DNA from: Candidatus Cloacimonadia bacterium
GTDB taxonomy: Bacteria; Cloacimonadota; Cloacimonadia; JGIOTU-2; JBNGDW01
Direction: 5' to 3'
DNA length: 54,871 nt
Assembly (NCBI GenBank): GCA_049975325.1
Contig: JBNGDW010000001.1
Coordinates: forward strand, 1-54,871
The position numbers and the translations under genes were made by a program. Within the stretch, counting starts at the first letter, position 1. Each line of letters begins with the position of its first letter. Below are positions 1 through 21,056 of this stretch, piece by piece. A model generated the notes under the pieces. The model had not been told where the DNA came from. It was given only the letters and a program-made list of their open reading frames with translations, and made no database searches.

Positions 1-1
1 G

Positions 2-310
2 TATAGGTATATGTATATGAATCAAGGGGTGAAAGTTTCGGAAAAATGTTTTGATAAAATACATACTGAGGCTGTCTTGGGTGATGTGGTCGATTTTGAC
101 AACATTGAACCAACATATTCCGGCATAGATTCAGTCCAGGTCGGGGATGTGTGGTATATATTCAATATACATACTCATTATACTGATGAGTCTGGAAATG
201 ATGTAGCAGGTCCAAGCGACTATCAGCGGGTTGATGTAAAAGTCTGGACTAACCCTTTTGTTATAATTGATACACTTAGATTTGATAACCTTTTTAAGAG
301 ATCTTCATAG
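2..310 (+). CDS. Hypothetical protein, probably the C-terminal part of a gene that starts upstream of the window (first ATG at 11). Its position suggests a pilus-operon or minor-pilin gene.
   Basis: The frame is open from nt 2 to the stop at 308-310. The next pseudopilin-like gene starts 9 nt downstream. No recognisable motif. Confidence 0.3.
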   Translation, partial: YRYMYMNQGVKVSEKCFDKIHTEAVLGDVVDFDNIEPTYSGIDSVQVGDVWYIFNIHTHYTDESGNDVAGPSDYQRVDVKVWTNPFVIIDTLRFDNLFKRSS

Positions 311-319
311 GATTATAAA

Positions 320-895
320 ATGGGAAGCCTTTTAGAAGCAATTTTTACATTATCGGTTGGAGGATTATTCCTTATTGCAATGATGACATCGCTTGTCAAC
401 CTTCAGGCATCAGCCCAGGATACCAGCTTTCAAGCCACGCTTAACAGTGTGGCAGAAGTTCAGTATCGAGAAATTTATGACCATCTCGGGAAAGTAGGTG
501 TCTTGATCGAAGACCAGCCGATATTGGCTGCTGAACCTGATAATTTCGTATTTCAAACTAAGTGGGATATAGTTGGTGACAGTTTGAGTAGCGATACAAA
601 CAGAGTAAGTATATCTCTGGGTGATAGTACCGATACGGGCTATCCGGTTGTAACTAAGCAGAATGGTAACCCTTTACCCAAGTCAGATGCTCCTATCTGG
701 TTAAAAGATATGACATTTACATATTTTGATATTAATGAAAATAGAATTGTTACACCAGATGATTCTTTAGATTTTATTCGCTCTGTAAGAGTCGATCTTG
801 AATTTTTCTGGCAAGGTAGTTATACAGGACCGGGAGAAAGGAGAGTTGGTACATTTCTTACTTTTTGGAAGTATTTTACAAATTTATATCTATAG
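320..895 (+). CDS. Prepilin-like (pseudopilin/minor pilin) protein
   Basis: The N-terminus MGSLLEAIFTLSVGGLFLIAMM has a very short leader, a Glu, then a ~20 aa hydrophobic helix, as in type IV pilin-like proteins. The gene is tightly packed in the pilus operon. The leader is atypically short. Confidence 0.45.
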   Translation: MGSLLEAIFTLSVGGLFLIAMMTSLVNLQASAQDTSFQATLNSVAEVQYREIYDHLGKVGVLIEDQPILAAEPDNFVFQTKWDIVGDSLSSDTNRVSISLGDSTDTGYPVVTKQNGNPLPKSDAPIWLKDMTFTYFDINENRIVTPDDSLDFIRSVRVDLEFFWQGSYTGPGERRVGTFLTFWKYFTNLYL

Positions 896-904
896 GAGGT
901 AAAA

Positions 905-2101
905 ATGGCAAGAACAATGTTAATAGGCGTAATAGTTATTGCTGTTATATTAACAGGAGTAGCCGTCAATATGCAAAAGCGGGTTTCTTCTTTACCTGAG
1001 AGGCTAACAGAAAATGTCGATTTGGCAAGGTCGAAAAATCTGAGAGATTTCGTTCTACAATATGCAGTGGAAGAGGCGCGCTCTCTGGAGGAAGAGGAAA
1101 GCTGGGTAAGCGAAGGAATCTTTCATAAAATAATTGATAGCGATTTCAAAGAAAGACTGTCTGAGTACTATGGTGGTACTGTAGATACTATTAGATATTT
1201 TGCGCTTGATACTGAAAAGGATAGCATTAGAATAAGTATGACTATAAAGCGAAGGATAGGCTCACGATTGTTCTCTGAGAAAGCACAAACTGAGATAGTA
1301 TACAAACTTAATGAGCATCCTGAGGAAGAACAGGTTGGGTATAGTTTTGATGAAGCTCACCCTGATAGTGTATTTGATAGTTCAGGAAAGGGCAATCACG
1401 GCATACTCGGGGATGGAAATCCGGATTATTATCCTGAGAGAACTGAACATGGTAAGAATAATTCTGCACTTGACTTTGATGGAGACAATGATTATGTAAA
1501 TGCTGGAACAGGAATTTTATCAGAAGATGACGAAGGATTAACAGTCGCGACCTGGGTGAACTTCGGTGATATTGGTACTGATTGGGGTGTTATAGCTGCT
1601 GAATTTAAATCCCCAGGTGATCCTTATCCTGTTTGGGCAATCAGGGCTCGAAAGACGGAGTCCTTCCTTTTTCTTCCTGCTACAATTAAACTGGCATTTG
1701 ATGTGTGTGATGAAAGTGGATTTTTCCCCTATAGTGAGGTTAGTGTTACGAAAACTGAGTACTCAATGGATTTCAATGCCTGGAACTATGTAGTTGCAAC
1801 TTATGAAGAAAAATTTGGGTCTGATGACGCGGTGATTACCATTTCTGTACTTTCAGCAGATGGAGCGGAGATAGGCTCGGATAAAAAGACAATAGATACT
1901 TGGAAAGGCAGAACTGAAGATAGCTATGTGACAATTGGAGGTAAAAGAACACGTATACCACTTATTGGTAAGTTGTTCTGTACTAATGCTCGAGTAGATG
2001 AAGTAAAAATCTTAAACAGAGCGGTGAATGCTAATGAAATTAAAGACCTGTGTCTGTATAATGGGATAAAGGAATCAAGGATAGCATACTGGATCTATTA
2101 G
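905..2101 (+). CDS. Membrane-anchored LamG (concanavalin A-like lectin) domain protein with a PilX-like N-terminal helix; candidate pilus-associated adhesin
   Basis: GGAGG RBS upstream. N-terminal hydrophobic helix MLIGVIVIAVILTGVAV. The block GYSFDE..DSSGKGNHG..NSALDFDGDNDYV..LTVATWV is typical of the Laminin_G_3 family. Confidence 0.6.
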   Translation: MARTMLIGVIVIAVILTGVAVNMQKRVSSLPERLTENVDLARSKNLRDFVLQYAVEEARSLEEEESWVSEGIFHKIIDSDFKERLSEYYGGTVDTIRYFALDTEKDSIRISMTIKRRIGSRLFSEKAQTEIVYKLNEHPEEEQVGYSFDEAHPDSVFDSSGKGNHGILGDGNPDYYPERTEHGKNNSALDFDGDNDYVNAGTGILSEDDEGLTVATWVNFGDIGTDWGVIAAEFKSPGDPYPVWAIRARKTESFLFLPATIKLAFDVCDESGFFPYSEVSVTKTEYSMDFNAWNYVVATYEEKFGSDDAVITISVLSADGAEIGSDKKTIDTWKGRTEDSYVTIGGKRTRIPLIGKLFCTNARVDEVKILNRAVNANEIKDLCLYNGIKESRIAYWIY

Positions 2102-2177
2102 CAATATCCTGTTCCTTGAAGAATTGATTTAACTTTTAAATATTGAAAGCAGTGTGATGTTTTAAGAGGGTTACATT

Positions 2178-2471
2178 ATGAATAGTCAGGAAGATTTGGT
2201 TCGCAAATATGAAGAGGTGGTTGAAGTGGCTGCTTCAATTGCGGGTATTGACCATGACATCAATAATCAGTTAACCGTATTTTCACTTTTACAGAGAAGA
2301 TTACAAAAGGCAGGTGAAGAATATAATGATGAGAAATTGTTAAGAAGCAGTAAGCAGGTGGCTGAAGCGCTGGAAAATATTGAAAATATCTTGAGCAGGT
2401 TACAGGATTTAAAGAGATTAGAATTAATAAAGGAAAAAAGAGGAAAATTAAGAATTAAGGATAAAAAGTAA
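2178..2471 (+). CDS. Stand-alone DHp (HisKA-like) helical-hairpin protein with an H-box and no ATPase domain
   Basis: AGIDHDINNQLTV closely resembles the H-box GGIAHDFNNMLTV of the hybrid kinase at 15990..21056. The rest of the protein looks coiled-coil. Its stop overlaps the next gene's start (TAATG at 2469-2473). Confidence 0.55.
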   Translation: MNSQEDLVRKYEEVVEVAASIAGIDHDINNQLTVFSLLQRRLQKAGEEYNDEKLLRSSKQVAEALENIENILSRLQDLKRLELIKEKRGKLRIKDKK

Positions 2472-3322
2472 TGGAGAATCATATTTTAGTTGTTGACGAC
2501 GAAGAGAATATAAGAACCCTGTGTAAGGAAATCCTTGAAGAGGAGGGATATAAAGCTACATTAGCAGCAGATGGCAAGGATGCTCTTGCAAAGATGAACC
2601 GCGATTATTTCGATCTATATTTAGTTGATATGGTTATGCCTTATATGGATGGTCTTGAACTTATCAAACGAATTAAAGAAAGGCAACCACTTGCTGTAAT
2701 TATAGTCACAACAGGATACTCAAGTATTGAAGGGGCTGTAAAGGCTGTGCATGCTGGAGCATTTCAATATATTGCTAAACCTATCAATCCACAAGAACTT
2801 CTTGAAACGGTAAGCAGAGGATTACAATATGGAGAAGAGCTATATGGACCTTTTCAAAAAATAACTGCGACTGAGAGGCCAAAAACGGCAGACCCTATTT
2901 TGCTTCATGGTTTCTCTGCTCGGGAAAGGGGGGAGTTCCTCGCTCTCGGAATTGTAAAAGAATACAATGGCGGAGATACTATTCCTATCCAAAATAACGA
3001 GCCAGGTCCTATTATAATGGTAGAAGAAGGCGAGATCTCTGTCTGGCTTAGCAATACTTCAATTGACTCTCTTGGAAAGACAGATTCCTGGGGCGAAGAG
3101 GCTTTCGTTCTTGCAGACCCTATCACGGCAACTTTACGAGCCGAGCTTCCTACTAAAGTACGCCATTTTACTCCTCAAAAGCTAACCGAATTCTTTAACT
3201 CCCAAAAGGATCGTCTGAAGAATCAGTTTATGGCAAATATAATTAGTTCAATATTTTATAAGTGGAGAAAATCTGTGCAAAGAATTGTAATGCTAAAACT
3301 TATTACCGGGGAAAATAGATGA
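2471..3322 (+). CDS. Response regulator: receiver domain fused to a cyclic-nucleotide-binding-like (CAP effector) domain
   Basis: REC motifs VVDDEE, LVDMVMPYMDG, IVTTGYSS and YIAKP. The C-terminal half has the pattern GDTI..EEGEISVW..SWGEEAFV..TATLRA, which matches the cNMP-binding beta-barrel layout. Confidence 0.8.
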   Translation: MENHILVVDDEENIRTLCKEILEEEGYKATLAADGKDALAKMNRDYFDLYLVDMVMPYMDGLELIKRIKERQPLAVIIVTTGYSSIEGAVKAVHAGAFQYIAKPINPQELLETVSRGLQYGEELYGPFQKITATERPKTADPILLHGFSARERGEFLALGIVKEYNGGDTIPIQNNEPGPIIMVEEGEISVWLSNTSIDSLGKTDSWGEEAFVLADPITATLRAELPTKVRHFTPQKLTEFFNSQKDRLKNQFMANIISSIFYKWRKSVQRIVMLKLITGENR

Positions 3323-3376
3323 CATGGTCTTGTTTTGAAAATAGGATATCATTATTGTAGAAAAGGAGAATAGAAG

Positions 3377-4591
3377 ATGGGTCTTTCTTTTACATCTGAA
3401 ATGCGGATAACCCTTCCTGAATACCTTTCTGGTACCAATCGCTTCCAAAACATCAACAAGATGTTAACATATAATTTGAATTGGAAGCAAGAGGCGTTTG
3501 ATCATCTGCGGCGCCTTCTAAAACATATGAGAGATATAGATGCCTCGGATATAGACTTCGGTGGACCTGGTTCAAATGGCAAAATATGGTATAGAGTATA
3601 TGGGCAGAAAAAACCTGACGATACTATGCCTCAATATAATTCTGATGAGGTTGTAGCAATATTACTCAGTGCTCTTTCTGATGAACAAAAGATCACCCTC
3701 TTCCAAAATAAAAATGTAGATTTCTCTTTCTCTATTTCGTTTGATGAAAAATCAATTCAAAGTCGTTTTCGGGGTGATATTTATTATGAATCAAATACAC
3801 TTGCCGTAAATTTTAGACGGATAAATGAGAAAATTTTCCCCATAGATAGCCTCGGTTTTCCACCTCCAATTATAAAACGACTTGATTTACAATATGAAAA
3901 AGCAGGCCTTGTTTTAGTAACCGGCATCACTGGTTCAGGGAAAAGTACTACTTTAGATTCCATAGTTGACATGAATAACCATAATAATCATGCGCATATT
4001 GTTATTATTGGGGATCCCATTGAATATATCCATAAATCAGACAAATCTGTTATCAGACATCGTGAAGTTGGTCAAGATGTATTAGGGTTCCGTGATGGTA
4101 CTATTCAAGCACTCAGACAAGACCCGGATATAATTGTGGTGGGAGAGATGAGGGATGCACCGACTATTGCAGCTGTGCTGGAAGCGACAGATGCCGGCCA
4201 TAAAGTATTTACAACCTTACATACAAACTCCGCAGTAGAGAGTCTACATAGAATAATTGCTGAGTTTCCACCAAACGAGCAAGATCGTGTAAGGATGAGA
4301 TTGGCTGATATAGTTAAGGTAATTATATCACAAAAATTGGTGCCAAATCGGGAAGGACAACTAACTCTGGCAAAGGAAATCCTCTCATCCAATGCTTCAA
4401 TCCAGGCCGCAATCCGGAATAAAAATATAAATGAAATCTACCAGATGATTACCCAAGGGAAAAAAGATGGAATGATAACCATGGAACAGGACCTTGCAAA
4501 TCTTGCTCAAAAGGGAATTATAACCACGAATACAGCCCTTAACTATGCAAACAGCAGGAAACGCGTGGAAAGCATTATATCTTATCAATAA
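3377..4591 (+). CDS. pilT: Type IV pilus retraction ATPase, PilT/PilU family (N-terminally extended)
   Basis: Walker A GITGSGKST, Asp box GDPIEY, Walker B DPDIIVVGEMRD, His box TLHTNSA, and an AAIRN motif. GGAG RBS upstream. Confidence 0.85.
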   Translation: MGLSFTSEMRITLPEYLSGTNRFQNINKMLTYNLNWKQEAFDHLRRLLKHMRDIDASDIDFGGPGSNGKIWYRVYGQKKPDDTMPQYNSDEVVAILLSALSDEQKITLFQNKNVDFSFSISFDEKSIQSRFRGDIYYESNTLAVNFRRINEKIFPIDSLGFPPPIIKRLDLQYEKAGLVLVTGITGSGKSTTLDSIVDMNNHNNHAHIVIIGDPIEYIHKSDKSVIRHREVGQDVLGFRDGTIQALRQDPDIIVVGEMRDAPTIAAVLEATDAGHKVFTTLHTNSAVESLHRIIAEFPPNEQDRVRMRLADIVKVIISQKLVPNREGQLTLAKEILSSNASIQAAIRNKNINEIYQMITQGKKDGMITMEQDLANLAQKGIITTNTALNYANSRKRVESIISYQ

Positions 4592-15989: not shown

Positions 15990-18900
15990 ATGCTTAAGAA
16001 AACAAATATTCTATTTATCGAAGGCTCCAGGCATGATTATATTTTAATAAAACAAACCCTACAACATTCAGATAAAATAAAATGTATTATTCATCAGGTC
16101 TCAGATGGGGAAAAGGCAATAAAACTCCTTAAAACTGATAAATCCTATGATCTTATAATTCTTGATTATGAATTGTCGGGGAAAAACGGCTTGGAAGTAT
16201 TGCAGAAGATAAAAAATACCGATATAGATATACCTGTACTCTTCATTGCTGCATCTGACAACGAACCCGTGGCTAACCAGTCCTTAACACTGGGAGCCCA
16301 AGAATATCTTATGAAAGATCGACTTGGAAAATTTCTCGATGTGCTACCAAATATGATAAAAAAAATGCGGCAAGAGTGGGAAAGCGGTAAGAAATATAAA
16401 TCTGCGATAGAAAATCTACAGAAAAGCGAAGAACGATATCAGATATTTATCCAGAATAGTTCCGAGGGTATCTGGTGTTTCGAGGCAAAAGAACCCATTC
16501 CTATAAACCTTGAGGAAGACGAGATTATTAATCGTATCTACGCCAACGGTATTCTGGTAGAATGCAACGATACTATGGCACAAATGTATGGATTCAAAAA
16601 AAGAGAAGATATAATTGGCACCCCTCTGAAAAATTTCCTTGTCCCTAATAAACAAAATATTGAATACCTCAAAAATTTTATTCGGCACGATTTTGTCCTG
16701 CGAGATGGAGAATCTTGGGAACCCGATAACACAGGAAAGGTTCATATATATCTTAATAATTTAACAGGAATTATCAAAGATGGCTGCCTGTTACAAGCAT
16801 GGGGAACCCAAAGAGATATAACCTCACAAAAACGGGAACAGCAAATAAGAGAAACCCTTTATAACATATCAAAAGCCCTGATTACGAGTGATTCTTTGGA
16901 AGAGCTTTTTAAGGCTATTCACAAGGAGATTAGCAATATTATTGATACTACAAATTTTTACATTACACTTTATGATGAGAAAAGTAATATTATCACTGCT
17001 CCTTACTATTTTTACCAGACAAAAAATACAGTACCTCCTCCCCAGACATTGAGAAATGGCTTAACCGCCTATGTAATTCGTTCAAAAAAGCCTCTTTACC
17101 TAACAGTAGAAAAAAGAGAACAGTTAATGAAAGAGGGTAAAATAGCACAGGCTGACTGGAAAAGCAAAATCTGGCTCGGGGTACCACTCAAAGTAAAAGA
17201 AAAAGTAATAGGTGCAATAGCTGTGCAAAGCTATACAGATGCGAATGCATACACTGAGGATGACTTAAAACTCATGGAAATGGTATCAGACCAGATAGCA
17301 CTGGCTATATCCCATAAACAGCAAGAGGAAGCGACTAAATTGAGCGAAAAATATTATAAAGATACTATCAACTCTATGGTAGACGCCATCCTTGTCGTAG
17401 ATAAAGATCTAAATATTACCCTCGCTAACGCTCCCCTGCTTAATCTATCTAAAGAATTGGGATTACCCACCAATTTAATGGGAAGAAATTTATTTGAAGC
17501 ATTTCCTTTCCTCTCTGAAAAAGTACAAAAAGAGTACAAACAAATCTTTGCGACACCGAAAACTCTCACTGCTGAGAGAACATACCAAATTAATAATCAG
17601 ACATTCATAATGTATATACAAAAAATCCCCTTTCTTCAAAACGAGAAACCAACGGAAGTGATTACTGTCTTGCGAGACCTTACTAAAGAGCGTGAAATAC
17701 AAACAAGGTATCAAAACCAGCTTCGGAATCTTCTTGATATCGGAATGAGTATCCGCAGTGAACTGGGGCTTAATGAACTTACTCAAAAAGTCTGTAATAT
17801 AATCGTACAATCTCTCGGCTGGCGCCAGGTTATACTCTCATTAAGGGACTACGATAAAGGCACATCCAGACCTGTGGCTATGGCTGGCTACGAGAAAGAA
17901 AAAGTGAGAGAAATGCTCAACTCTTCTCCTGTACCTATTGAAAAAACTGAAAGGTTTCTTCGCGATGAATTCAAAATAAGCAAATCATTTTACATCGATC
18001 ATACACACTGGGAGGAGATACAGGGATACCCGGGAGGTTATATAATAACCCCGGTAAAAGAGCAGACACCAGAAGGATGGCATGAACATGATGTATTGCT
18101 TATACCAATATATGGGAAAGAAAAAATCCTGGGCTTTTTATCTCCAGATAATCCGATAAACGGCAAAAAACCATCTGTAGATGACATACAAGCACTTGAA
18201 ATATTTGCAGATCAGGTAGGAGTGGCTCTTGAAAATGCTCAAATCTATGAAAAATTAGAGCACGCCCAAAGACGACTCCAGGATATTTTAGCAAACATCG
18301 AAGAAATGATATGGGAAATAGATAATGAAGGAAGAATCATCTACTCCAGTAGCATTGCTGAAAAAATCCTTGAATATAAACCAGAAGAGATTATAGGAAA
18401 ATCCTTTTACGAAATTCTTTCTCCAGACAATGGGAAAAGGTTAAAAAAATTGTATAGCCGTATTAAAAGAACAAAACGCTCCTTTAAAGATATTGTCATA
18501 CAAGCCAAAACCAAAAATGGCAAAGAGATTATTTGTTCATTAAGTGGCATCCCTACTATAGACAAGAGAGAAAACCTTACCGGTTATATGGGTAGCGCAC
18601 GGGACATTACTTTAGAAAAAATTGCACAGGATAAATTAAAAGCAAGTGAAGAAAAATACAAAACGCTCATAACAAATGCAGTAGATGGTGTTTATATGCA
18701 TGACTTAGATGGCAATTTTACCCTTGTTAATCCAGCGGTATGTAAAATATTGAGATATTCTGCTAAGGAACTTTTGCATATGAATATCTCTGATATACTT
18801 ACTCCAGAGGGGCTGAGGCTGGCAAAAGAAAAAACAGAATACAAAATAATAACACAGAAACCCACCTCTCCCTATGAACTTTCCATCATCAATAAAGAAG

Positions 18901-21056
18901 GCCTTACCATCCCGGTAGAAATCAACAGCGCTCCGATTATAAAAAACCAAAAAGTGGTAGCAGTACAGGGAATTGTACGAGATATGCGAACACAAAAGCG
19001 TATAGAAAAACAAATCCGTGACTCACTGCGTGTAAAAGAGATGCTCTATAATATCGCAACAGCAGCAGCCACATTAAATACTGTAGAAGAACTTCTTGCT
19101 TTGGTTCGAGAAGAGCTTGGTCGTTTTATAGATGTTACGAACTTTTATGTTGGGCTTCTCGATAAGGAGCACAATATCATAACACTCCCCTATGAAATTG
19201 ATCAAAAAGACAAAATACCCATAATACCTGTGGATACCTCTTTGACAGGTTATGTAGTGAGAACAGGCAAGACATTGGTTGCTAATCAAGACTGTATAAA
19301 TGAGCTGAAACAAAAAGGTGAAATAGAGATAATTGGTGAACCTTCAAAAATCTGGGTTGGTGTCCCCTTAAAACTCGAGAAGGAAGTTATAGGTACGATA
19401 GTTGTCCAGAGTTATACAGCTGAAAATGCATATTCAGAAGAGGATATACGACTTCTTGAATTTGTAGCCAATCAAACAGCTCTCATAATTGACCGAAAGC
19501 AGCAGGATTACGAGCTCCAGAAGACGAAATCACAACTTCAAGACCTTTTTGATAACGCAAATGACATGATCTGGACATCTGATAAAGATAAAAAATTCCT
19601 TATGGTAAATCATTCCTTAGAAACGCTTCTGGGTTATGCCAAAAAGGATCTGCTGGGACAGGATTTCACCGAGATTGTTAAAACAGAAGAGCGGGAGAAA
19701 GCTATCACTGCTTTTCAAAAAGCCATATCAGGGAAACAGTCAGAATCTGAAGTCTCTTTTATGACAAAAGAGGGAGAGGAAAGAACCTTCTGGCTAAAAT
19801 TGCGTCCTCTAAAAGAGGATAATAAAATTGTAGTTGTCCATTGTATAGGCCGGGATATAACAGAATGGCGCCAAGCAGAAGAAGAGCTACGAAAAAAGAA
19901 TGAGGAACTCTTACAAATCCAGAAAATGGAGTCTATCGGCAGACTGACTGGTGGTATTGCACATGATTTTAACAATATGCTTACTGTAATCAATGGTAGA
20001 TGTAGCAACCTCCTCCAAAAGATGCCTACTAACGACCCTTTCCGGCGAGAAGTGGAGAAAATTCTAAATGCAGGGACACAAGCCGCAAATATTACCAATC
20101 AACTCCTTATCTTTGGGCGCAAAAAGGCATGGCAACCGACCAATATTGATGTTAATAAAGTGATAAAAGAAATGTATGATATTCTTCGCCACTTACTTAG
20201 AGAGAATGTTGAAATAGAAACCTATATGCAGGAACAATCAGCAATTGTAAAAAGTGATCCTGCTCAACTGGAACAGGTTATAATGAATCTCTGTATTAAT
20301 GCATCTGACGCAATGCCAGAAGGCGGCAAGTTAACAATAACCACTGAGACTATAAATCTTAATGGTGATTATGCTAAGAGCCATATTGAACGAAAACCAG
20401 GAAAATATCTAAAAATAACAGTTTCAGATACTGGCGTAGGCATGGATGATAATGTTTGTTCCCATATCTTTGAGCCGTTTTATACTACTAAGAAAGGAGG
20501 CGAAAGAACTGGACTCGGATTAACAACCGTATATGCCATTGTACAACAAAGTAATGGCTTTATTAATGCTTATAGCCAGGTTGGGAAAGGCTCTACATTT
20601 GAGGTCTTCCTTCCAATATCACAGGAAGAAATTCCAGAAATGCAAAAGCCTGTGGAATTACAAAAAGAAATTGAATCTCAACATCTCGCCAATGAGACCA
20701 TTCTCCTTGTTGAAGATCAGGATATGGTGAGAGAACTAACATATGAAATATTGGCCGATCGAGGTTATATGGTGCTCCTTGCTCGTACTGGGAATGAGGC
20801 ATACTCGATTTGTCAAAATTACAATGAAGATATAGATTTAATGATTACTGATGTTATAATCCCGGATATGAATGGCTATGAGTTATACCAAAAAGTCTCT
20901 ACTATTCAACCCAAAATGAAAATTCTCTTTATCTCCGGTTACATAGAGGGAGATACTTTGGAAAAAGGAACCGCAGAAAAATTGACTCCTTTCCTGCAAA
21001 AACCATTTTCTCCTCAAAAATTACTTTTAACGGTTCAAAAAATTTTAACCGAATAA
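15990..21056 (+). CDS. Giant hybrid sensor histidine kinase: REC, multiple PAS and GAF domains, HisKA, HATPase, REC
   Basis: N-terminal REC (DLIILDYELSGKNG). Two clearly paralogous GAF domains (..IWLGVPLKVKEKVIGAIAVQSY.. and ..IWVGVPLKLEKEVIGTIVVQSY..). H-box GIAHDFNNMLTV, N box NLCINASDAM, G boxes DTGVGM and GLGL. C-terminal REC (LMITDVIIPDMNG, QKPF). Confidence 0.9.
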   Translation: MLKKTNILFIEGSRHDYILIKQTLQHSDKIKCIIHQVSDGEKAIKLLKTDKSYDLIILDYELSGKNGLEVLQKIKNTDIDIPVLFIAASDNEPVANQSLTLGAQEYLMKDRLGKFLDVLPNMIKKMRQEWESGKKYKSAIENLQKSEERYQIFIQNSSEGIWCFEAKEPIPINLEEDEIINRIYANGILVECNDTMAQMYGFKKREDIIGTPLKNFLVPNKQNIEYLKNFIRHDFVLRDGESWEPDNTGKVHIYLNNLTGIIKDGCLLQAWGTQRDITSQKREQQIRETLYNISKALITSDSLEELFKAIHKEISNIIDTTNFYITLYDEKSNIITAPYYFYQTKNTVPPPQTLRNGLTAYVIRSKKPLYLTVEKREQLMKEGKIAQADWKSKIWLGVPLKVKEKVIGAIAVQSYTDANAYTEDDLKLMEMVSDQIALAISHKQQEEATKLSEKYYKDTINSMVDAILVVDKDLNITLANAPLLNLSKELGLPTNLMGRNLFEAFPFLSEKVQKEYKQIFATPKTLTAERTYQINNQTFIMYIQKIPFLQNEKPTEVITVLRDLTKEREIQTRYQNQLRNLLDIGMSIRSELGLNELTQKVCNIIVQSLGWRQVILSLRDYDKGTSRPVAMAGYEKEKVREMLNSSPVPIEKTERFLRDEFKISKSFYIDHTHWEEIQGYPGGYIITPVKEQTPEGWHEHDVLLIPIYGKEKILGFLSPDNPINGKKPSVDDIQALEIFADQVGVALENAQIYEKLEHAQRRLQDILANIEEMIWEIDNEGRIIYSSSIAEKILEYKPEEIIGKSFYEILSPDNGKRLKKLYSRIKRTKRSFKDIVIQAKTKNGKEIICSLSGIPTIDKRENLTGYMGSARDITLEKIAQDKLKASEEKYKTLITNAVDGVYMHDLDGNFTLVNPAVCKILRYSAKELLHMNISDILTPEGLRLAKEKTEYKIITQKPTSPYELSIINKEGLTIPVEINSAPIIKNQKVVAVQGIVRDMRTQKRIEKQIRDSLRVKEMLYNIATAAATLNTVEELLALVREELGRFIDVTNFYVGLLDKEHNIITLPYEIDQKDKIPIIPVDTSLTGYVVRTGKTLVANQDCINELKQKGEIEIIGEPSKIWVGVPLKLEKEVIGTIVVQSYTAENAYSEEDIRLLEFVANQTALIIDRKQQDYELQKTKSQLQDLFDNANDMIWTSDKDKKFLMVNHSLETLLGYAKKDLLGQDFTEIVKTEEREKAITAFQKAISGKQSESEVSFMTKEGEERTFWLKLRPLKEDNKIVVVHCIGRDITEWRQAEEELRKKNEELLQIQKMESIGRLTGGIAHDFNNMLTVINGRCSNLLQKMPTNDPFRREVEKILNAGTQAANITNQLLIFGRKKAWQPTNIDVNKVIKEMYDILRHLLRENVEIETYMQEQSAIVKSDPAQLEQVIMNLCINASDAMPEGGKLTITTETINLNGDYAKSHIERKPGKYLKITVSDTGVGMDDNVCSHIFEPFYTTKKGGERTGLGLTTVYAIVQQSNGFINAYSQVGKGSTFEVFLPISQEEIPEMQKPVELQKEIESQHLANETILLVEDQDMVRELTYEILADRGYMVLLARTGNEAYSICQNYNEDIDLMITDVIIPDMNGYELYQKVSTIQPKMKILFISGYIEGDTLEKGTAEKLTPFLQKPFSPQKLLLTVQKILTE

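Follow-up and report, generated by a model that had tools for sequence, protein, structure and literature searches.

A predicted stand-alone DHp hairpin of 97 residues, the smallest member of an apparently undescribed CA-less PilS-like family in Cloacimonadota

The dimerization and histidine-phosphotransfer (DHp) domain of histidine kinases is conventionally regarded as inseparable from the ATPase domain, the exceptions being Spo0B and ChpT, both of which have a fold resembling that of the catalytic and ATP-binding (CA) domain. Here, we describe a 97-aa protein encoded at positions 2178 to 2471 of a 54,871-nt stretch of DNA from a Candidatus Cloacimonadia bacterium (contig JBNGDW010000001.1; this whole stretch is referred to below as the window), within a cluster of type IV pilus genes. 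The Cloacimonadota are an uncultivated phylum common in digesters and oil reservoirs. The protein is very probably a genuine HisKA-type DHp hairpin, derived from a PilS-like family (6TM_PilS followed by DHp) that is without a CA domain anywhere in this phylum.

Spo0B and ChpT are the precedents for DHp-based phosphotransferases, and ChpT, for which the hybrid kinase CckA is the phosphate donor, still has a degenerate domain of the ATPase fold (PMC3433190). The DHp domains of EnvZ and NtrB suffice on their own for phosphatase activity, both in vitro and in vivo, and two positions of the HisKA H-box have been assigned separate roles, in that the Asp/Glu directly after the histidine (+1) serves phosphoryl chemistry and is dispensable for the phosphatase reaction, and the Asn/Thr at H+4 is needed for the phosphatase reaction only (PMC3510030). 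PilS itself becomes a phosphatase of PilR as pilin accumulates in the membrane (10.1101/323923).

The 97-aa protein and its slot in the pilus cluster

The gene and its borders are defined by the following features:

2178..2471, plus strand: DHp gene, 97 aa, predicted HisKA-type two-helix hairpin with no CA domain and no transmembrane (TM) segment (from the open reading frame [ORF], a HisKA match at E = 0.0039, an AlphaFold2 [AF2] model, and family alignments)
2250..2273, plus strand: H-box D25-H26-D27-I28-N29-N30-Q31-L32, with the codon of the putative phospho-acceptor His at 2253-2255 and Asn30 at H+4, the "phosphatase" position
2469..2473, plus strand: TAATG, in which the stop of the DHp gene overlaps the start of the response regulator gene, read from the sequence
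2102..2177, plus strand: intergenic spacer of 76 nt between the LamG gene and the DHp gene, with the Shine-Dalgarno-like element AGAGGG

His26 lies within GIDHDINNQLTV, and the H-box reads IDHDINNQLTV. The stop-to-stop frame of the gene holds only 101 codons, and thus no longer N-terminus is possible; at the other end, only 71 residues follow His26, and the chain stops after helix 2. A Pfam scan of the protein (E <= 1) returned HisKA, HisKA_2, and one spurious match and nothing else, with no match to HATPase_c, a sensor domain, HPt (PF01627), or the Spo0B and ChpT families (SPOB_a, PF14689; HPTransfase, PF10090). An earlier note on this DNA had described the protein as devoid of sensor and ATPase domains, as the scan confirms, and all coordinates and motifs that it listed (the ORF, both His codons, TAATG, and the hybrid kinase discussed below) are correct. 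Of the two profiles that the same note had proposed for a search, HisKA was matched below its gathering score and Spo0B gave no match.

The match to HisKA (PF00512) spans profile positions 6-64 of 66 at 17.6 bits, where the gathering score is 26.9 bits. Among diverse relatives, however, 21 of 24 matched HisKA at E <= 0.1 (best, 3.2e-6), with P0033 (27.5 bits) above the gathering score and L025 (26.6 bits) near it. In NCBIfam, two kinase families gave weak matches only, both in their DHp regions. When the PDB was searched by sequence, a narrow alignment (A1) retrieved only designed helical proteins, and a broader profile (A2) placed a histidine kinase on top with the H-boxes aligned (E = 0.025). 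The AF2 model, built from an alignment of orthologues, is an antiparallel hairpin of helices at residues 2-48 and 52-96 (mean pLDDT, 85.5). Foldseek, which does not discriminate between helical hairpins, found nothing in the PDB for this model below an E of 1.4.

The TAA stop of the DHp gene (2469-2471) shares its final A with the ATG (2471-2473) of the ORF at 2471-3322. The translational coupling of the two genes proposed earlier has the overlap in the window in its favor, but the overlap is not conserved in relatives, where the gap between the genes ranges from -11 to +26 nt. A strain variant seen in a crude-oil metatranscriptome assembly (X9) is without one base at window position 2448 and reaches a TAA after residue 90, indicating that neither the Lys-rich tail (residues 91-97) nor the TAATG overlap is essential or constant. 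Short contigs from the X9 metatranscriptome span the ORF and its junction with the regulator gene; since DNA carry-over is possible, they were not counted as evidence of expression. Three runs from an oil-field metagenome (X1, X5, and X8), labeled "TRANSCRIPTOMIC RNA-Seq Oligo-dT," gave contigs of 12-100 kb with flat depth across window positions 1500-4000, and such contigs imply DNA-like libraries that are unfit as expression evidence.

Three neighboring genes mark the position of the DHp gene within the cluster:

905..2101, plus strand: LamG-domain pilus-associated protein (Laminin_G_3, 7.8e-10), found in the same upstream place in loci L001-L009 and marking the operon slot
2471..3322, plus strand: response regulator, 283 aa, with a canonical receiver (D9, D10, D53, T81, K103) and a cNMP-binding-like beta-barrel plus C-helix (AF2)
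3377..4591, plus strand: PilT-like retraction ATPase, the next gene (T2SSE, 1.7e-39), with synteny in more than 60 loci

The DHp family gene holds the same slot of the type IV pilus cluster throughout the loci analyzed, in the conserved order PilC, PilB, two small pilin-like genes, the LamG protein, the DHp gene, the receiver (REC) regulator, PilT, PilMNO-like genes, and the secretin. The co-occurrence of the DHp ORF and the regulator gene in related genomes, which the earlier note had put forward as a check, is borne out by more than 60 loci in which the regulator lies directly downstream. The regulator matches Response_reg (2.3e-31) and, just under the cut-off of 27.5 bits, cNMP_binding (5e-6, 26.8 bits); in the relative L065, the latter match is above threshold at 33.8 bits. 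Neither the Pfam scan nor the AF2 model revealed a DNA-binding (helix-turn-helix) or AAA+ domain, and a fold search of the model gave matches dominated by receiver domains, with nothing for the C-terminal domain. In 22 regulator orthologues (281-298 aa), D9, D10, D53, T81, and K103 are invariant. Given its lack of a DNA-binding domain and its position next to PilT, the regulator probably modulates pilus dynamics via protein contacts, with pilus retraction the probable target process. No CA-bearing kinase adjoins the regulator gene.

A CA-less PilS-like family in Cloacimonadota

An exhaustive phmmer search of 1.84 billion representative sequences with the window protein returned only 26 proteins. 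Several of these are about 300 aa long and carry the DHp module at the extreme C-terminus, preceded by five or six hydrophobic helices. Their N-terminal part corresponds to 6TM_PilS (PF25323; gathering score, 27 bits; best match, 33.8 bits) and their C-terminal part to HisKA (up to 27.5 bits). These matches indicate that the window protein is homologous to the DHp domain of PilS-type kinases. A scan of one genome per species yielded 78 loci, nearly all of them in metagenome-assembled genomes (MAGs) of Cloacimonadota, and in a phylum sample of 151 Cloacimonadota genomes exactly one family copy was present in 80 (30 of 53 genera), with a second fragment in two of the 80. In the 80 family loci analyzed, only 59-122 residues are encoded between the His and the C-terminus, which is too short for a CA domain in any member, and none of these loci gave a CA-profile match. 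Three weak out-group matches (L083, L085, and L086) do match the CA profile.

The H-box consensus of 76 non-redundant members is D-H-D-[IL]-N-[NT]-P-L. None of the 76 departs from the His, Asp(+1), Asn(+3), Asn/Thr(+4), or Leu(+6), with overall sequence identity falling as low as 27-30%; Pro(+5) is found in 70 and is replaced by Gln in the window's lineage. The invariance of the His among orthologues, which the earlier note had made decisive for its proposal, thus stands. Taken together with the invariant receiver residues of the regulator, the invariant H-box also indicates that both partners keep their phospho-chemistry. Outside the H-box, at the end of helix 2, the family has a C-terminal motif, L-K-x-L-x-L-I (alignment positions 76-82; window 2400-2440, residues 76-87), of which L76, K77, L81, and I82 are nearly invariant in the 76 sequences. 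This motif may be a docking site.

These data place the 97-aa protein as the smallest member of a CA-less PilS-like family that spans Cloacimonadota and is apparently undescribed, as no description of such proteins was found in the literature searched, the coverage of which was incomplete. The central proposal of the earlier note, a free-standing HisKA-type DHp with an intact H-box that is tied to the adjacent REC regulator, is upheld by the profile matches, the invariant H-box, the predicted hairpin, and the adjacency of the genes. That note had presented the protein as an isolated oddity, and this view has to be given up. The protein is instead the TM-less end-member of a large family of 6TM_PilS plus DHp proteins, which provides a direct evolutionary link to PilS.

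Comparison within the family further suggests that the six-TM (6-TM) module was lost in the window's lineage, leaving a soluble DHp of 92-97 aa. Same-order relatives have open frames of 303-325 aa that include the 6-TM domain, as opposed to the 92-97 aa of the window's lineage, which takes in L001-L005 as well as proteins labeled "Candidatus Marinimicrobia" in NCBI. No remnant of the 6-TM domain was detected by tblastn with five 6TM domains, either in window positions 1-4000, in L001, L005, L025, and L079, or in the whole 1.70-Mb genome, and a profile search found PF25323 nowhere in the window genome. The 76-nt spacer upstream of the DHp gene is too small to hold a 6-TM domain. Other short forms are L025 (120 aa) and L079 (149 aa, with one TM segment), and open frames of about 150-190 aa occur in another genus. 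Between TM-less orthologues, the proportion of nonsynonymous differences (pN) is 0.13-0.37, against a saturated 0.77-0.91 for synonymous ones (pS), giving a pN/pS of about 0.15. That pS is saturated while pN is low indicates that the short gene has been kept for a long time by purifying selection.

Two individual loci were set aside. In L052 (9321-10276), the gene is split into a TM-coding part, 98% identical to the intact L050 gene, and a separate 85-aa DHp ORF; with the TM-coding part just upstream, this locus was rejected as an independent TM loss (it may represent a pseudogene, a programmed split, or an assembly error). In L065 (9371-11086), a single 571-aa ORF contains detectable 6TM_PilS, HisKA, Response_reg, and cNMP_binding domains. 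This fusion of 6TM-DHp and regulator was not used as Rosetta-stone evidence, as it comes from one MAG and is an in-frame read-through that could reflect either a real gene fusion or a one-base assembly error at the usual stop/start overlap.

Hybrid kinases and the role of the hairpin

The window encodes one further protein of relevance to the function of the hairpin:

15990..21056, plus strand: hybrid histidine kinase, 1688 aa, candidate phosphodonor, with a pseudo-REC, multiple GAF/PAS domains, HisKA, HATPase_c, and a C-terminal REC at about 20694-21047

This protein is the only hybrid kinase of the window genome (1.70 Mb, 90.6% complete), which has about five CA-bearing kinases, three of them adjoining or lying near regulators of their own, as well as seven receiver proteins and exactly one CA-less DHp. 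A profile search (E <= 0.1) found no HPt domain in the genome. His1325 of the hybrid kinase (codon 19962-19964) lies within GIAHDFNNMLTV, with the H-box IAHDFNNMLTV. This H-box shares 9 of 12 residues with that of the 97-aa protein and is the closest to it among the five HisKA H-boxes of the genome, the two being alone in carrying "HD" and in having no Pro at H+5, and BLASTP aligns the 97-aa protein with the hybrid-kinase DHp at E = 1e-4. The residues after the H-box, however, differ strongly between the two, and phmmer with the 97-aa protein as query retrieved no other kinase in the genome. The close resemblance of the two H-boxes reported earlier is therefore real but largely generic HisKA similarity. 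Of the genome's receivers, the C-terminal REC of the hybrid is the most similar to the regulator REC over the DHp-facing beta5-alpha5 segment (8 of 14 residues) and the second most similar over alpha1, a comparison that is suggestive but too weak to separate a relay from direct phosphorylation. At its N-terminus (residues 1-122; window 15990-16360), the hybrid kinase has a receiver-like domain with E-G in place of the acidic DD pocket and without the conserved Thr/Ser, which is probably a pseudo-receiver serving as an input domain.

Linkage to an orthologous hybrid kinase, at 6-18 kb from the DHp gene, extends across the phylum. A CA-bearing kinase is encoded within 10 kb on either side of the DHp gene at 30 of the 80 loci, and 27 of these 30 are hybrids, in three arrangements. 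Twenty-three Cloacimonas-type loci have a CHASE4-PAS-HisKA-CA-REC hybrid on the same strand, mostly 6.2-6.6 kb downstream (outliers, 5.3 kb in L065 and 2.0 kb in L075); L006 and L007 have a convergent hybrid of 1484-1537 aa at +1.5 kb, and L037 and L038 have a REC-PAS-HisKA-CA-REC hybrid 7.2 kb upstream. At L045 (16451-18961) and 22 similar loci, the CHASE4-PAS-HisKA-HATPase_c-REC hybrid, of about 841 aa, closes the pilus cluster at roughly 6.3 kb beyond the DHp gene and is apparently a periplasmic-sensing kinase dedicated to the pilus operon. For genomes with no kinase within 10 kb, whole-genome searches with the core of the window's hybrid were performed, and in 16 of them the best match genome-wide lay on the same contig and strand as the DHp gene, at a distance of 9-18 kb, on the downstream side in the window's order and on the upstream side in a different family. 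Contig ends account for most of the remaining loci without a linked kinase.

In the phylum sample, a hybrid kinase of this kind is present in 79 of 80 DHp-positive genomes compared to 35 of the 71 that are DHp-negative (p = 7e-14 by Fisher's test, with no correction for phylogeny or genome size), and all eight of the DHp-positive same-order genomes that were checked have a single hybrid kinase and no HPt. We also considered whether the family might substitute for HPt throughout the phylum and rejected the idea, as the two are not associated (33/47 versus 27/44; odds ratio, 1.1; p = 0.74), and the argument from a missing HPt consequently holds only for the window's order.

For the role of the hairpin, the earlier note had offered a Spo0B-like phosphotransferase, a dedicated phosphatase, or a decoy. 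We tentatively favor the first, in which the protein would be a Spo0B/ChpT-like H2 phosphotransfer node between the receiver of the hybrid kinase and the pilus regulator, and probably a phosphatase as well. A hybrid kinase, a CA-less DHp with His and Asp(+1), a regulator without a kinase of its own, and their conserved linkage together form the signature of an H1-D1-H2-D2 relay. Without a CA domain, and therefore without autophosphorylation, the 97-aa protein would provide H2, the second histidine in a relay of four steps. The linked hybrid kinase would autophosphorylate and pass the phosphoryl group to its own C-terminal receiver, from which His26 of a DHp dimer would take it up and deliver it to Asp53 of the co-expressed REC-cNMP-like regulator. 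Since His-Asp transfer is reversible and the Asn/Thr at H+4 is invariant, the DHp would, with the kinase inactive, remove phosphate from the regulator as well, either by back-transfer or by hydrolysis. The PilS-type membrane domain of the 300-aa relatives would put the transfer step under its control, plausibly by sensing membrane pilin, and the soluble form of the window would be ungated, with no membrane input. Homology, architecture, conservation, synteny, and gene linkage are established here; from them, we infer dimerization, phosphorylation of His26, the direction of transfer, and the output.

The phylum-wide linkage to hybrid kinases and the presence of one hybrid kinase and no HPt in the genome argue for the relay, as does the invariance of both His and Asp(+1) in all 76 members, the latter being a residue of phosphoryl chemistry and not of the phosphatase reaction (PMC3510030). 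A number of points weigh against it, starting with the homology of the hairpin itself, where the HisKA score of the window protein is under the Pfam threshold, the fold search is uninformative, and the Spo0B and ChpT families are not matched. In Spo0B and ChpT, moreover, a CA-like domain takes part in binding the partner, and the 97-aa protein has no such domain. Around 25 loci have no kinase within 10 kb, and the linkage is loose rather than operonic. The association with hybrid kinases stands uncorrected for phylogeny and genome size, and small genomes are without both components. Phylum-wide, many carriers of the family do have HPt, mostly inside large kinases. The relay, with its predicted dimerization and His phosphorylation, is deduced from homology and gene context, and the invariant Asn/Thr at H+4 and the pilin-stimulated phosphatase mode of PilS fit a pure phosphatase equally well.

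A dedicated phosphatase is accordingly the main rival, less probable than the relay in our estimation but viable, and the two are not mutually exclusive. The DHp dimer would in this case dephosphorylate the regulator via Asn30, as a "PilS locked in phosphatase mode," and the regulator would receive its phosphate from another source, for example acetyl phosphate, an orphan kinase, or the hybrid kinase acting directly. The H+4 residue, needed exclusively for HisKA phosphatase activity, is Asn or Thr in every one of the 76 members, the DHp domains of EnvZ and NtrB need no further domain for this reaction in vitro or in vivo (PMC3510030), and PilS, the source of the family's TM domain, turns into a phosphatase when pilin is abundant (10.1101/323923). 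The absence of a CA domain from every member and the tight adjoining of the DHp and regulator genes fit this reading as well. It does not explain why Asp(+1), although dispensable for phosphatase activity, is as invariant as the His, nor why hybrids predominate so heavily among the linked kinases (27 of 30). A hybrid kinase would not normally transfer phosphate straight to a free regulator, and the single hybrid kinase of this HPt-less genome would be left without a downstream partner.

The remaining alternatives fare worse. The hairpin could be half of a split kinase or a decoy, with another kinase supplying the CA domain that phosphorylates His26 in trans, as happens when EnvZ is reconstituted from two domains, or with a heterodimer between it and the hybrid-kinase DHp blocking or redirecting that kinase. 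This would fit the invariant His and kinase-specific Asp(+1), and the DHp most similar to it in H-box and by BLASTP is indeed that of the hybrid kinase. Nevertheless, there is no stand-alone CA protein in the operon or its conserved neighborhood, the two DHps diverge strongly after the H-box, the failure of phmmer to retrieve any other kinase of the genome speaks against a heterodimer-competent paralogue, and most of the phylum has a membrane-anchored form of the protein, with linked kinases of differing architecture; such a module is improbable, and the decoy role from the earlier note is without support. Slightly less probable still is a non-catalytic coiled-coil adaptor, in which the H-box would be a fossil and the hairpin would tether the regulator to the pilus machinery or, in the long forms, to the membrane. 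Although the sub-threshold HisKA score, the uninformative fold search, and the conserved L-K-x-L-x-L-I motif outside the H-box all count in favor of an adaptor, a fossil motif should drift, whereas five H-box positions are invariant across very divergent sequences, and the partner receiver retains all of its phospho-chemistry residues. Overall, we rank the phosphorelay first.

Comparison with known systems

On the data at hand, this locus appears to encode a natural, conserved DHp-only signaling protein, the most reduced form within a kinase-less PilS family that extends through the phylum; DHp-type phosphotransferases are themselves known. A broader and more doubtful proposal is that the Cloacimonadota pilus is run by an unrecognized phosphorelay, the H2 step of which would be a CA-less DHp fused to a PilS-type pilin-sensing domain, so that what a membrane signal controls would be phosphotransfer or dephosphorylation and not the activity of a kinase; the window protein would then be its minimized soluble core and the smallest known signaling protein derived from a histidine kinase. 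More generally, a conserved natural protein made up of a lone DHp hairpin would show that such a hairpin is a sufficient signaling unit in vivo, and that relay or phosphatase elements can exist whose sensor domain controls phosphotransfer instead of autophosphorylation. It would also supply a candidate for the missing partner of hybrid kinases in many HPt-less genomes. At about 11 kDa, the protein is a convenient system for studying DHp-receiver specificity, and it offers a first handle on pilus regulation in Cloacimonadota.

With PilS, the family shares a PF25323 domain directly before the HisKA DHp in the long relatives, as well as the pilus cluster, the regulator neighbor, and an H-[ED]-x-x-N-P-L H-box. 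In contrast to PilS, no family member has PAS or HATPase_c, hence none is a kinase, and the window protein is without the membrane domain as well; with no C-terminal HATPase_c, it does not classify as a class I sensor histidine kinase. The partner also differs, being a REC plus cNMP-binding-like protein and not the sigma54 activator PilR (REC-AAA+-HTH).

HPt proteins (PF01627), such as the HPt domain of ArcB and Ypd1, are comparable in that a histidine is proposed as the intermediary between two receivers; they are, however, monomeric four-helix bundles of unrelated sequence, and neither the protein nor the genome has an HPt match. Spo0B and ChpT come closer, as DHp hairpins that assemble into a dimeric four-helix bundle, are incapable of autophosphorylation, and carry phosphate from a receiver on to the last regulator of the pathway. 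For ChpT, the donor is the hybrid kinase's own REC, and the gene context suggests a comparable arrangement here, in which the CA-less DHp is accompanied by a hybrid kinase and a regulator and HPt is absent. Unlike the 97-aa protein, which has no PF14689 or PF10090 match, both have a C-terminal CA-like alpha/beta domain (PMC3433190), and most members of the Cloacimonadota family differ from them further in being membrane-anchored. Finally, isolated "domain A" of EnvZ and the NtrB DHp are likewise CA-less hairpins with the same H-E/D-x-x-T/N motif, able to dephosphorylate their cognate regulators and to be phosphorylated in trans, but those are laboratory truncations, whereas the hairpin described here is the product of a natural, conserved stand-alone gene.

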